From a virus (lineage: Duplodnaviria; Heunggongvirae; Uroviricota; Caudoviricetes), in the IMG/VR virus record IMGVR_UViG_2681813264_000007: a stretch of DNA of 4,828 bases; one strand, given 5' to 3'. The stretch's first letter is position 1; each line of letters starts with the position of its first letter. Positions 542 to 4,828 of the stretch are shown here, one piece after another. The translations under genes and the position numbers were made by a program. A model generated the notes under the pieces. The model saw nothing but the letters and a program-made list of their open reading frames with translations. It searched no databases and was not told the origin of the DNA.

Positions 542-1600
542 GTGCGGGTATTACTTCGACCTGTTCTGGTACCGGAACTCGGTCTGGTTATCGTTAAGCC
601 AGGCCGTGAATCAATGTCAGCATTCCATAACGGCAGAATACTGGTGGAGCCGGAACCAAAAAGCATGCGTAATCTGCCGTCCGGGGTCGTTCCTGCCGCT
701 CGCCAGCCGCTGGTGGAAGACAAAACATTGCTGCCGTTTTTCAGTAACGCACGGGTGATTCGTGCTGCTGGTGGTGCTGGTGCATTGTCTGACTGGCTGT
801 TGCGCCATATTAAATCCTGCCAGTGGCCACACGGCGATTATCATCACAGCGAAACCGTCATTCACCGTTATGGTACCGGCGCAATGGTGTTGTGCTGGCA
901 CTGCGACAACCAGCTGCGTGACCAGACATCCGAATCACTCGAGCAACTTGCTCATCAAAACCTGTCAGCATGGATGATTGACGTCATCGGTCACGCAATA
1001 AGCGGTACGCAGGAGCGTGAATTATCTCTGGCTGAATTATCCTGGTGGGCGGTCCGCAATCAGGTGGCGGACGCGCTACCGGAAGCGGTATTACGTCGTT
1101 CGCTGGGGTTGCGTGCGGAAAAAATTCGCTCTGTGTACAGTGAAAGCGACATCATACCGGGAGAGCAGACAGCCACCAGCATACTGAAGCAGCGCACAAA
1201 AAATATTGCGTTACTGCCTCACGTCCACCAGCAACAGAACCCACCACAGGAAAAGACGGTGGTCAGCATTGCCGTTGATCCGGAGTCACCGGCTCAGTAT
1301 CTCCAGCGCCAGAAATCACAACGGGAAGAGATGCCTGTATACACGCGCTGGGTAAAAACGCAGAAATGCATGACGTGTGGCAATCAGGCAGATGATCCGC
1401 ATCACATCATTGGTCATGGACTGGGAGGGATGGGAACAAAGGCTGATGATTTGTTTGTTATTCCGTTATGCCGTAAATGCCGTAACGAACTACATGCCGG
1501 AGTAAAAGATTTTGAAGAGAAACACGGCAGTCAGCTGTTGTTGCTGATTCGTTTTTTAATGCACGCGAGAAATTCGGGTGTTCTGAAGTGGAAAGCATAA
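542..1600 (+). CDS. DUF968 / YdfU-like prophage protein with two NinG-type Cys/His (HNH-like zinc) modules; putative DNA-processing enzyme
   Basis: 352-aa ORF. The C-terminal motif CMTCGNQADDPHHIIGHGLGGMGTKADDLFVIPLCRKCRNELH is characteristic of the NinG/YbcO/DUF968 group, and an N-terminal module CQWPHGDYHHSETVIHRYGTGAMVLCWHCDNQL is related. GTG start at 542 follows GGAGG (533-537); an ATG at 614 is an alternative, so the start is uncertain. Stop TAA 1598-1600 abuts the rusA ATG. Confidence 0.8.
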   Translation: MRVLLRPVLVPELGLVIVKPGRESMSAFHNGRILVEPEPKSMRNLPSGVVPAARQPLVEDKTLLPFFSNARVIRAAGGAGALSDWLLRHIKSCQWPHGDYHHSETVIHRYGTGAMVLCWHCDNQLRDQTSESLEQLAHQNLSAWMIDVIGHAISGTQERELSLAELSWWAVRNQVADALPEAVLRRSLGLRAEKIRSVYSESDIIPGEQTATSILKQRTKNIALLPHVHQQQNPPQEKTVVSIAVDPESPAQYLQRQKSQREEMPVYTRWVKTQKCMTCGNQADDPHHIIGHGLGGMGTKADDLFVIPLCRKCRNELHAGVKDFEEKHGSQLLLLIRFLMHARNSGVLKWKA

Positions 1601-1981
1601 ATGACCGAGCGCATAGAATTTGTTTTACCTTACCCGCCGACGGTGAACACTTACTGGCGTCGTCGTGGCAGCACATATTTTGTATCAAAAGCCGGTGAGC
1701 GTTATCGCCGTGATGTGGCGCTTATTGTTCGCCAGCAGCGGCTGAAATTAAGCCTGTCCGGAAGGTTGGCAATAAAAATTATTGCAGAACCACCGGATAA
1801 GCGCCGCCGTGACCTGGACAATATTCTGAAAGCGCCGCTGGATGCGCTGACGCATGCGGGGTTGCTAATGGACGATGAGCAGTTTGATGAAATCAATATC
1901 GTTCGTGGTCAGCCAGTATCTGGTGGACGTCTGGGGGTGAAGATTTACCCCATAATGCATGAAGAGCAGGTCAAAAAATGA
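1601..1981 (+). CDS. rusA: Crossover junction endodeoxyribonuclease RusA (Holliday junction resolvase)
   Basis: 126 aa. The N-terminal LPYPPTVNTYWRRRG and the acidic catalytic segment PDKRRRDLDNILKAPLDALT match the RusA family signature (E. coli RusA is about 120 aa). The start ATG directly follows the upstream stop (TAAATG) and the stop overlaps the next start (ATGA). Confidence 0.9.
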   Translation: MTERIEFVLPYPPTVNTYWRRRGSTYFVSKAGERYRRDVALIVRQQRLKLSLSGRLAIKIIAEPPDKRRRDLDNILKAPLDALTHAGLLMDDEQFDEINIVRGQPVSGGRLGVKIYPIMHEEQVKK

Positions 1982-2797: not shown

Positions 2798-2839
2798 NNN
2801 NNNNNNNNNNNNNNNNNNNNNNNNNNNNNNNNNNNNNNN
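2798..2839. other. Run of 42 ambiguous bases (assembly gap or masked sequence)
   Basis: Directly visible as n characters. The true length and content are unknown. By lambdoid gene order the Q stop codon, the late promoter PR' and the qut site are expected here. Confidence 1.
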
Positions 2840-2876: not shown

Positions 2877-2902
2877 AACCCGCCGCCGAGCGGGTTTTTT
2901 AT
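2877..2902 (+). terminator. Rho-independent terminator, tR'-like (late-operon terminator subject to Q antitermination)
   Basis: GC-rich stem CCCGC (2879-2883) pairing with GCGGG (2890-2894), 6-nt loop, then TTTTTT (2895-2900). Positioned just downstream of Q, as tR' is in lambdoid phages. Confidence 0.65.
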
Positions 2903-3020
2903 GACTGAAATCGCGTCAGTACAGTAAACGCGCTGGTGGCGGTGAATACCTGTCTTTCAGCTTGCTGGCTTTTTCGACAAGAGTTATTGGTGTGTCACGT
3001 TAACCGGAAAAGGAAAAGAC

Positions 3021-3218
3021 ATGCTAAAACAGCAGGATATGACAGAAACCGCCAGAGTGGTGTTTAATGAATTAAGCGTTACCGAACCGGCGACAGTCGG
3101 GGAGATAGCGCAGAATACTTACCTTTCACGCGAACGCTGCCAGTTAATACTGACTCAGCTTGTTATGGCGGGTCTGGCAGATTATCAGTTCGGTTGTTAC
3201 AGACGCCTTCCGCAGTGA
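3021..3218 (+). CDS. Small winged-helix-like DNA-binding protein (65 aa), hypothetical regulator
   Basis: Good SD, AGGA (3011-3014), 6 nt before ATG 3021. The segment TVGEIAQNTYLSRERCQLILTQLVMAGLA has the hydrophobic/Gly pattern of small wHTH regulators (AsnC-N-terminal, PapI/FaeA-like). Family assignment is by pattern only. The stop TGA lies inside a terminator hairpin. Confidence 0.55.
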   Translation: MLKQQDMTETARVVFNELSVTEPATVGEIAQNTYLSRERCQLILTQLVMAGLADYQFGCYRRLPQ

Positions 3219-3230
3219 AGGCTTTTTTAT
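3205..3230 (+). terminator. Rho-independent terminator overlapping the stop codon of the 65-aa ORF
   Basis: Stem GCCTTC (3205-3210) pairing with GAAGGC (3217-3222), loop CGCAGT, then TTTTTT (3223-3228). Confidence 0.6.
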
Positions 3231-3245
3231 TTGTGGTAAATGGGC

Positions 3246-3276
3246 GGCTGGTGGGTGTTAGGGGCACCCACCAGCC
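3246..3276. repeat. Perfect 12-bp inverted repeat with 7-nt loop, carrying a Chi octamer in each arm
   Basis: GGCTGGTGGGTG (3246-3257), loop TTAGGGG, CACCCACCAGCC (3265-3276). GCTGGTGG is on the + strand at 3247-3254 and on the - strand at 3268-3275. No T-tract follows, so it is not a classical terminator. Confidence 0.9.
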
Positions 3277-3317
3277 ATCTGCTCATGCGTTGGGTTCACA
3301 AGCAAACCTCAGGCCCA

Positions 3318-3336
3318 CTGCTTTGCGCAAAAGCAG
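3318..3336. repeat. Second hairpin / near-palindrome in the methyltransferase leader
   Basis: CTGCTTT (3318-3324) pairs with AAAGCAG (3330-3336) around the loop GCGCA. The core TTTGCGCAAA (3322-3331) is a perfect DNA palindrome. Confidence 0.7.
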
Positions 3337-3368
3337 AATGAGCCTATCAGAGACAGGCTTAATGATCC

Positions 3369-4427
3369 ATGCTTAATACTGTAAAAATATCCAGTTGTGA
3401 GTTAATCAACGCCGACTGCCTGGAATTTATCCGGTCGTTACCCGAAAATTCTGTTGACCTGATAGTCACGGACCCGCCGTACTTTAAAGTGAAGCCTGAG
3501 GGCTGGGATAACCAGTGGAAGGGCGACGATGATTACCTGAAGTGGCTGGACCAGTGTCTGGCGCAGTTCTGGCGGGTACTGAAGCCTGCCGGAAGTCTTT
3601 ACCTGTTCTGTGGTCATCGCCTGGCATCTGATATCGAAATCATGATGCGTGAACGCTTCAGTGTGCTGAACCATATTATCTGGGCGAAGCCGTCCGGACG
3701 CTGGAACGGATGCAACAAGGAAAGCCTGCGGGCGTATTTCCCCGCCACAGAGCGCATTCTGTTCGCGGAACATTATCAGGGGCCGTATCGTCCGAAAGAT
3801 GCCGGGTATGCGGCGAAGGGCAGTGCACTGAAACAGCATGTGATGGCCCCGCTGATTTCTTACTTTCGTGATGCGCGAGCTGCCCTGGGGATAACGGCAA
3901 AACAGATTGCAGATGCCACAGGAAAGAAAAACATGGTGTCGCACTGGTTCAGTGCCGGTCAGTGGCAGTTGCCGAATGAAAGCGATTATCTGAAATTACA
4001 GGCGCTGTTTGCCCGGGTGGCAGAAGAGAAGCATCGGCGTGGTGAACTGGAAAAGCTCCACCACCAGCTGGTGGATACGTATACCTCACTGAACCGGCAG
4101 TATGCGGAGCTGCTGAGTGAATATAAACATCTGCGGCGGTATTTTGGCGTGACGGTGCAGGTGCCGTATACCGATGTGTGGACGCATAAACCGGTGCAGT
4201 TCTATCCCGGGAAACATCCGTGCGAAAAACCGGCAGAAATGCTGCAGCAGATAATCAGCGCTAGCAGTCGTCCGGGTGACCTGATTGCAGATTTTTTCAT
4301 GGGGTTGGGTTCGACAGTGAAAGCGGCACTGGCGCTCGGGCGTCGTGCAATTGGCGTTGAGCTGGAGACTGAACGTTTTGAGCAGACGGTTCGGGAAGTA
4401 CAGGATTTAGTCAGCCAGAACGGATGA
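3369..4427 (+). CDS. DNA methyltransferase, beta-class N6-adenine/N4-cytosine amino-MTase (N6_N4_Mtase fold), apparently orphan
   Basis: 352 aa. The catalytic DPPY motif lies near the N-terminus (VDLIVTDPPYF, nt 3471-3482) and the AdoMet-binding FxGxG motif near the C-terminus (DLIADFFMGLGSTV). Motif IV before motif I defines the beta permutation. A roughly 130-aa variable region between them is the presumed target-recognition domain. No restriction endonuclease gene is adjacent. Confidence 0.9.
   Translation: MLNTVKISSCELINADCLEFIRSLPENSVDLIVTDPPYFKVKPEGWDNQWKGDDDYLKWLDQCLAQFWRVLKPAGSLYLFCGHRLASDIEIMMRERFSVLNHIIWAKPSGRWNGCNKESLRAYFPATERILFAEHYQGPYRPKDAGYAAKGSALKQHVMAPLISYFRDARAALGITAKQIADATGKKNMVSHWFSAGQWQLPNESDYLKLQALFARVAEEKHRRGELEKLHHQLVDTYTSLNRQYAELLSEYKHLRRYFGVTVQVPYTDVWTHKPVQFYPGKHPCEKPAEMLQQIISASSRPGDLIADFFMGLGSTVKAALALGRRAIGVELETERFEQTVREVQDLVSQNG
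4061..4074. repeat. 14-bp perfect palindrome CCACCAGCTGGTGG containing Chi on both strands, inside the methyltransferase CDS
   Basis: Direct reading: CCACCAGC (4061-4068, Chi on - strand) overlaps GCTGGTGG (4067-4074, Chi on + strand). It encodes the H-Q-L-V-D stretch of the methyltransferase. Confidence 0.9.
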
Positions 4428-4467: not shown

Positions 4468-4543
4468 GGCCCTTTAGCTCAGTGGTGAGAGCGAGCGACT
4501 CATAATCGCCAGGTCGCTGGTTCAAATCCAGCAAGGGCCACCA
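4468..4543 (+). tRNA. ileZ: tRNA with CAT anticodon, most likely tRNA-Ile2 (lysidine, AUA-reading; ileX/ileZ-like) rather than tRNA-Met
   Basis: Manual cloverleaf: acceptor GGCCCTT pairs with AAGGGCC; D-arm GCTC/GAGC; anticodon loop CTCATAA (CAT at 4501-4503); T-arm GCTGG-TTCAAAT-CCAGC; discriminator A; encoded CCA. The anticodon arm GCGACTCATAATCGC resembles E. coli ileX. The symbol is by analogy with the ileZ-argN-argO trio of Stx phages and is tentative. Confidence 0.8.
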
Positions 4544-4550
4544 TCACATA

Positions 4551-4627
4551 CCGCCATTAGCTCATCAGGAAAGAGCGCCAGCCTTCGAAGCTGGCTGCGC
4601 GGGGTTCAAGTCCCCGATGGCGGTCCA
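4551..4627 (+). tRNA. argN: tRNA-Arg, anticodon TCG (reads CGA/CGG)
   Basis: Manual cloverleaf: acceptor CCGCCAT pairs with ATGGCGG (C1:G72); D-arm GCTC/GAGC; anticodon stem CCAGC/GCTGG with loop CTTCGAA (TCG at 4585-4587); T-arm CGGGG-TTCAAGT-CCCCG; discriminator T; encoded CCA. The symbol is by positional analogy only. Confidence 0.75.
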
Positions 4628-4640
4628 TTATCTGCATCAT

Positions 4641-4717
4641 GCGTTGTTAGCTCAGCCGGACAGAGCAATTGCCTTCTAAGCAATCGGTCACTGGTTCGAA
4701 TCCAGTACAACGCGCCA
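4641..4717 (+). tRNA. argO: tRNA-Arg, anticodon TCT (reads AGA/AGG; argU-like)
   Basis: Manual cloverleaf: acceptor GCGTTGT pairs with ACAACGC; D-arm GCTC/GAGC; anticodon stem ATTGC/GCAAT with loop CTTCTAA (TCT at 4675-4677); T-arm ACTGG-TTCGAAT-CCAGT; discriminator G; encoded CCA. Resembles E. coli argU. The symbol is by positional analogy only. Confidence 0.8.
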
Positions 4718-4731
4718 CACTTATTTTCCCT

Positions 4732-4757
4732 GGCTCGCTTTTGCGGGCCTTTTTTTT
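4732..4757 (+). terminator. Rho-independent terminator after the tRNA cluster
   Basis: Stem GGCTCGC (4732-4738) pairs with GCGGGCC (4743-4749) with one G-U pair, loop TTTT, followed by eight T (4750-4757). Confidence 0.7.
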
Positions 4758-4828
4758 AAATGTCTCACAATTCAGACGGTTGACAGTTGTCTGTTTTGCG
4801 GGGAGTTTGTTAAAAGAAACTGGCATGG

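Follow-up and report, generated by a model that had tools for sequence, protein, structure and literature searches.

A probable ortholog of the non-specific adenine methyltransferases M.EcoGI and M.EcoGII in the late region of a defective Shigella prophage

The window studied here is a stretch of 4,828 nucleotides from a tailed-phage (Caudoviricetes) record in IMG/VR, IMGVR_UViG_2681813264_000007, and the gene in question lies on its plus strand at 3369..4427, where the list of open reading frames (ORFs), Pfam and identity to known alleles point to a beta-class N6-adenine methyltransferase of the M.EcoGI/M.EcoGII type. A previous description made from the letters alone (the sequence-only reading) had placed an orphan beta-class methyltransferase of unknown specificity here; the ORF is indeed present, with a length of 352 amino acids. 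Pfam N6_N4_Mtase (PF01555) matches residues 29-340 of the protein with E = 7.9e-42, far beyond chance. Motif IV, the catalytic adenine-binding DPPY, occupies residues 35-38 (3471..3482, plus strand), exactly where it had been placed. It is invariant across 120 close relatives, and its aspartate is found in all 134 distant representatives in which that column is occupied (150 representatives in total, 32-97% identical and mostly 35-50%). The S-adenosylmethionine (AdoMet)-binding loop of motif I, announced earlier as FxGxG near residue 300, is present as FMGLG but lies at residues 310-314 (4296..4310, plus strand), so that only its position was slightly off. Thus, DPPY comes before the target-recognition domain and FMGLG after it, which is the motif order of the beta class and the order given by the sequence-only reading.

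The protein has the seven-stranded Rossmann-like catalytic fold common to solved beta-class enzymes, among which M.MboIIA, M.BceJIV, M.RsrI, CcrM and M.PvuII are the ones for comparison. Sequence matches in the PDB (M.BceJIV 8urk/9c3u, M.RsrI, CcrM, M1.HpyAVI, M.MboIIA, TTHA0409 and M.PvuII) are restricted to residues ~8-141 and ~263-345, and these searches found no solved relative for the center of the protein. Similarly, the NCBIfam YhdJ-type, PRK13699 and CcrM models match at both ends only, with scores far under their cut-offs. The two strings quoted earlier, ITAKQIADATGKKNMVSHWF and HRRGELEKLHHQLVDTYTSLNRQYAELL, are both present in the sequence. The central target-binding module (residues ~140-262; 3786..4154, plus strand) consists of a helical bundle with an Xre-type helix-turn-helix (HTH) followed by a long charged helix that acts as a linker. 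An HTH bundle and a charged linker therefore stand where a sequence-reading domain would be, and both are features of the M.EcoGI/M.EcoGII clade. In the published model of M.EcoGII, the Rossmann core is formed by residues 1-134 and 260-349, a long charged and partly helical linker is present, and a large positive surface is proposed as the source of non-specific binding; the enzyme elutes as a dimer (the SUPREM paper, PMC11551740). In the segments that form the subunit interface (97-110 and 116-140), the protein from the window differs from M.EcoGII at residue 103 only, and this difference appears to be an optical character recognition (OCR) error in the printed sequence, as every relative has isoleucine there.

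The similarity to this clade extends over the full length of the protein, central domain included. The protein shares 336 of 349 residues (96%) with the allele of E. coli 55989, and 324 of 353 columns with M.EcoGII as machine-read from a published table (Table S1 of PMC11551740), with OCR errors left uncorrected. Once the evident OCR errors are discounted, ~21 real substitutions remain, corresponding to roughly 92-94% identity, a figure that is approximate because the exact sequence of M.EcoGII was not recovered. M.EcoGII (EGT69837.1) and M.EcoGI resemble the enzyme of the window in beta-class order, in the position of DPPY, in length class (349 versus 352 amino acids) and in ~92-96% whole-length identity that takes in the HTH target-binding domain and the charged linker, and all three are prophage-borne orphans. 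The window protein differs from M.EcoGII in the ~21 substitutions, in a C-terminus that is three residues longer and in residing in a defective Shigella prophage. For scale, M.EcoGII and M.EcoGI, from the same strain, share 333 of 349 residues (PMC5778455). Nucleotide comparison puts the gene at 95% identity with the "DNA methylase" carried by many phages that convert their hosts to Shiga toxin 2 (Stx2) production and by phage 1720a-02 (95.0%), which Murray et al. named as the carrier of a very similar enzyme (PMC5778455), and at 85% identity with the "DNA methylase" of phiP27. M.EcoGII itself is absent from the phage collection that we searched, since the best tblastn match to it there was only 94%.

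What such an enzyme does is known from M.EcoGII, a 349-amino-acid beta-class prophage enzyme of E. coli O104:H4 C227-11 (Murray et al. 2018; PMC5778455). Its substrates are double- and single-stranded DNA, DNA:RNA hybrids and RNA, in all of which adenine is methylated regardless of context, and its product was measured as N6-methyladenine (m6A) by liquid chromatography-mass spectrometry (PMC5778455). Further, a study of O111 Shiga toxin-producing E. coli methylomes lists homologs that are 92-93% similar to M.EcoGI/GII at the amino acid level as "nonspecific". Because M.EcoGII has been characterized, the identity to it is high and such homologs are listed as non-specific, the window enzyme is predicted to be non-specific rather than of unknown specificity, and the sequence-only reading, which had itself named a match to a well-characterized enzyme as the finding that would overturn it, does not hold on this point. 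We consider it very probable, judging from sequence identity, that 3369-4427 encodes an ortholog of M.EcoGI/M.EcoGII, the N6-adenine methyltransferase without sequence specificity that lambdoid (Stx-type) prophages carry. The family is already known and characterized, and the feature is real but ordinary.

Several observations weigh against this interpretation. Four OCR-corrected guesses at the M.EcoGII sequence gave no exact look-up match, which is why the identity figure is approximate. Most of the ~21 substitutions fall in the target-recognition domain and the linker, and they leave some room for a shift in preference. The AlphaFold2 model of the full-length protein is only moderately confident, with a mean pLDDT of 72 (predicted local distance difference test). 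A leucine in place of serine at residue 313, in the AdoMet loop, could impair AdoMet binding. Finally, the candidate late promoter to which we assign expression of the gene (see below) was identified from its resemblance to lambda pR' in the unmasked sequence of near-identical genomes.

The distribution of the substitutions is also one of the points in favor of what the sequence-only reading had proposed, an orphan methyltransferase of adenine N6 (or cytosine N4) with a specific but undiscovered site. So are the database label of the protein, "site-specific DNA-methyltransferase" (an NCBI family name), and the presence in the same sequence cluster of the site-specific M.PflMI, whose predicted fold is described as similar overall, HTH-type target-recognition domain included, but which is said to lack the highly charged linker (PMC11551740); the window protein retains this linker. 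The label, however, is generic and automatic, and the 92-96% full-length identity is to non-specific enzymes and covers both the HTH and the very linker that M.PflMI lacks. Reconstructed ancestors of the clade stay largely non-sequence-specific (PMC11551740), although their printed sequences diverge from M.EcoGII more than the window protein does. DPPY and the m6A product of M.EcoGII also count against this proposal, and because of them we rejected the N4-cytosine alternative as well. A private recognition site thus appears very improbable, and we retain the assignment to the non-specific M.EcoGI/M.EcoGII family.

The description of the enzyme as an orphan was borne out. Its neighbors are a Q-type antiterminator gene, a 65-amino-acid ORF and three tRNA genes, and no restriction endonuclease gene was found among the ORFs of the window, including overlapping and antisense ORFs searched with Pfam. 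Since there is no partner gene, we rejected a restriction-modification system. ORFs at 3441-3944 (minus strand), 3679-3900 (minus strand) and 3194-3373 (plus strand) were treated as spurious because none had a Pfam match. In the chromosomes that carry the region, DUF968, RusA and Q genes lie upstream of the methylase, and the tRNAs and then a holin gene lie downstream; on this gene order, and with no restriction gene present, we class the enzyme as an orphan encoded in the probable late operon of a lambdoid prophage.

The exact 352-amino-acid protein is already public under a multispecies Shigella record that covers S. sonnei and S. flexneri; it occurs on ~1,000 contigs, and the index lists it in 4,314 blocks. 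Some 1,000 complete E. coli genomes contain 80% or more of the whole window. With 99.7% identity, the window also matches 4.8-Mb chromosomes whose methylase gene sits in a prophage remnant adjoining ompW, and this Shigella remnant is interrupted by IS1 and IS3-family insertion sequence (IS) elements and is missing its early, head and most tail genes. In four loci inspected with ~10 kb on each side (L003-L006), IS1/IS3-family insertions flank the region, with one IS just past the tRNAs. The remnant retains a hokD-type toxin gene, DUF968, RusA, Q, the methylase, an SASA/DUF6645 esterase-like gene and the holin gene. A literature search for a Shigella sonnei methylome study returned nothing relevant.

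Against this background, the change at residue 313 deserves attention. The middle position of motif I is leucine in the window protein (codon TTG at 4305-4307), whereas phage 1720a-02 and E. coli 55989 both have TCA as codon 313. Serine occupies this position in 119 of the 120 close cluster representatives, and leucine in none; all 36 of the 41 further cluster members in which motif I was readable have GSG, and again none has leucine. The 150 distant representatives show more variety (S 113, T 8, G 7, A 2, H 2, L 1, Q 1). F310, G312 and G314 are retained, and so the clade pattern F-x-G-S-G is altered only by S313L. At columns with at least 95% conservation, the protein deviates only twice, by S197G and S313L, both rare or absent in relatives, and this number equals the family median.

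Judged from the alignment, Ser313Leu may weaken or abolish the activity of the window copy, and a catalytically dead or strongly impaired protein is possible, if on balance somewhat doubtful. A broader version of this idea is that the gene is a decaying, functionally dead copy, unexpressed in a defective prophage and inactivated by Ser313Leu. It draws on the absence of leucine from the 120 close relatives and the further cluster members (and its single occurrence among the 150 distant ones) and on the condition of the ompW-adjacent prophage, IS-interrupted and without early, head and most tail genes. Yet the reading frame is intact, and two departures from conserved columns are no more than the family median. 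Rossmann-fold methyltransferases in general tolerate changes at the middle residue of GxG, which also counts against decay. That Leu313 became fixed says little either way, because clonal Shigella lineages fix neutral changes easily. We regard a dead copy as a tentative explanation that is rather unlikely. Far less plausible still is the view that Ser313Leu is a natural motif-I variant with altered function, whether a non-catalytic nucleic-acid-binding protein that no longer binds AdoMet or an enzyme with altered cofactor use, and not a neutral or decay mutation.

The sequence upstream offers a candidate explanation of how the gene would be controlled. A DUF968/HNH-like gene (542-1600, plus strand) and a RusA gene (1601-1981, plus strand) are followed by the Q-type antiterminator gene, which starts at 1978 on the plus strand. 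In the window, the Q ORF seemingly runs to 2904 and was listed with 308 amino acids; this is an artifact, because a run of Ns (2798..2839, plus strand) hides the Q stop codon, and the near-identical chromosomes give a real product of 273 amino acids. The run comprises 42 bases in the window and 45 in near-identical genomes, where the unmasked stretch (L003, 9425-9475) reads as the Q stop TAA and then TTGATT-16 nt-TAAATT-CGTCAT-AACGATGGGCG. We take this stretch to be a candidate late promoter closely resembling lambda pR' with its sigma-70 pause-inducing element, here AACGAT. A promoter scan of the window gave a single weak site, before the tRNAs, because the real candidate sits in the N run.

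Two terminator-like hairpins with T runs, both on the plus strand, separate this promoter from the methylase. The first (2877..2905; dG -11.2 kcal/mol, z -2.6) is a candidate tR' located ~65-70 nt past the inferred start site, and it is also the point at which homology begins among phages with different Q genes. The second (3205..3232; dG -8.9 kcal/mol, z -2.0) lies between a small ORF and the methylase. The StxS small RNA accompanies a short Q type of 144 amino acids, and the distance from pR' to tR' is 258 nt in that system (PMC7547250); we did not adopt StxS as an identity for the short leader seen here, as the Q of the window has 273 residues. A paper on late promoters does not mention the methylase, the tRNAs or the terminator positions (PMC6266700).

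The small ORF is a conserved frame of 65 amino acids (phrog_331; 3021..3218, plus strand) with a weak winged-helix signal, a sub-threshold TrmB-type match at E 0.0026, and the annotations of E. coli 55989 and of phage 1720a-02 list it as a hypothetical protein. It is bracketed by the two terminator-like hairpins and lies upstream of the methylase at all loci compared. Its product might act together with the methylase or regulate it. After the second terminator-like site, and before the methylase start, comes a very stable hairpin (3246-3277; 14-bp stem, dG -29.9 kcal/mol, z -5) whose arms bear Chi in opposite orientations and which is not followed by a T run; this hairpin is kept in E. coli 55989 and phage 1720a-02.

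E. coli 55989 and the Stx phage 1720a-02 both conserve the whole stretch from the first hairpin to the methylase, despite the different Q gene of the latter, in which Q is followed by the same series of elements, from a terminator through the small ORF, a second terminator and the Chi-armed hairpin to the methylase. Stx2 phages, 1720a-02 and phiP27 share the methylase gene with the window at 85-95% nucleotide identity. Unlike the window, these phages are or formerly were functional, carry stx downstream, have different Q genes and show GSG in motif I. After the methylase of phage 1720a-02, stx2A is the next annotated gene on the same strand.

The order of Q, pR'-like promoter, two terminator-like hairpins, methylase and tRNAs fits late, Q-dependent expression, and it fits the reported silence of M.EcoGII in the lysogen (PMC5778455). 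Constitutive expression of M.EcoGII is harmful, and clones of this kind were slow-growing and unstable (PMC5778455). Transcription would begin at the pR'-like promoter, and Q-aided read-through of both terminators would be needed to reach the methylase, which would then be made only late in lytic growth. The enzyme would contact nucleic acid non-specifically, mostly through electrostatic interactions, and adenines would be flipped into the DPPY pocket. In this scheme, replicating, concatemeric phage DNA would be heavily methylated ahead of packaging, and the progeny would thereby evade many m6A-sensitive restriction systems; protection of phage DNA from restriction by such methylation was also proposed by Murray et al. 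(PMC5778455). The copy in the window is probably never expressed, because it resides in an IS-riddled defective Shigella prophage whose early region is missing.

Downstream of the methylase, a tRNA search and Rfam identified three tRNA genes with anticodons CAT, TCG and TCT (4468..4717, plus strand), and the Rfam search found nothing beyond them. The first (CAT) is tRNA-Ile by RefSeq annotation, and the three resemble the rare-codon tRNAs of the ileZ/argN/argO type in Stx phages. Beyond them, at 4732-4759, is a strong terminator-like hairpin. The position of the methylase directly upstream of these genes, together with the methylation of RNA by M.EcoGII in vitro, could suggest that RNA (for example, transcripts of the phage or its host, or the neighboring tRNAs themselves) is the main natural substrate. 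However, M.EcoGII shows an initial rate ~100-fold lower with RNA than with DNA (Table S3 of PMC11551740), we found no in vivo RNA data, and a tRNA neighborhood is general to Stx-type late regions. An RNA-directed role is therefore highly unlikely in our judgment, and DNA remains the expected substrate of the M.EcoGI/M.EcoGII-type enzyme.

The methylase gene also contains the internal double-Chi palindrome reported by the sequence-only reading, which we recovered as CCACCAGCTGGTGG, an overlapping Chi and reverse-Chi at 4061..4074 (it has no strand) that covers the codons H-H-Q-L-V-D. The E. coli 55989 allele shares it, but the allele of phage 1720a-02, which has synonymous and conservative changes there, does not. 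Nine Chi octamers occur in the 4.8 kb (five on the plus and four on the minus strand), at 709-716, 767-774, 1173-1180, 1225-1232, 2932-2939, 3247-3254, 3268-3275, 4061-4068 and 4067-4074, versus 0.19 expected from shuffles. This density is several times that usual in E. coli. The palindrome is part of the general Chi excess, and we saw no evidence that ties it to the methylase. Because Chi-rich lambdoid phages have already been described as a class (PMC12315714), the excess in the window is probably an instance of that class.

For the family as a whole, the discovery value of this gene is small, as M.EcoGII-type enzymes are sold as a reagent and widely used in chromatin and protein-DNA footprinting. 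The name "site-specific DNA-methyltransferase" is misleading for a family whose characterized member has no site specificity. When Shigella methylomes are predicted, or natural M.EcoGII variants are mined, the activity of the Leu313 allele should not be presumed.
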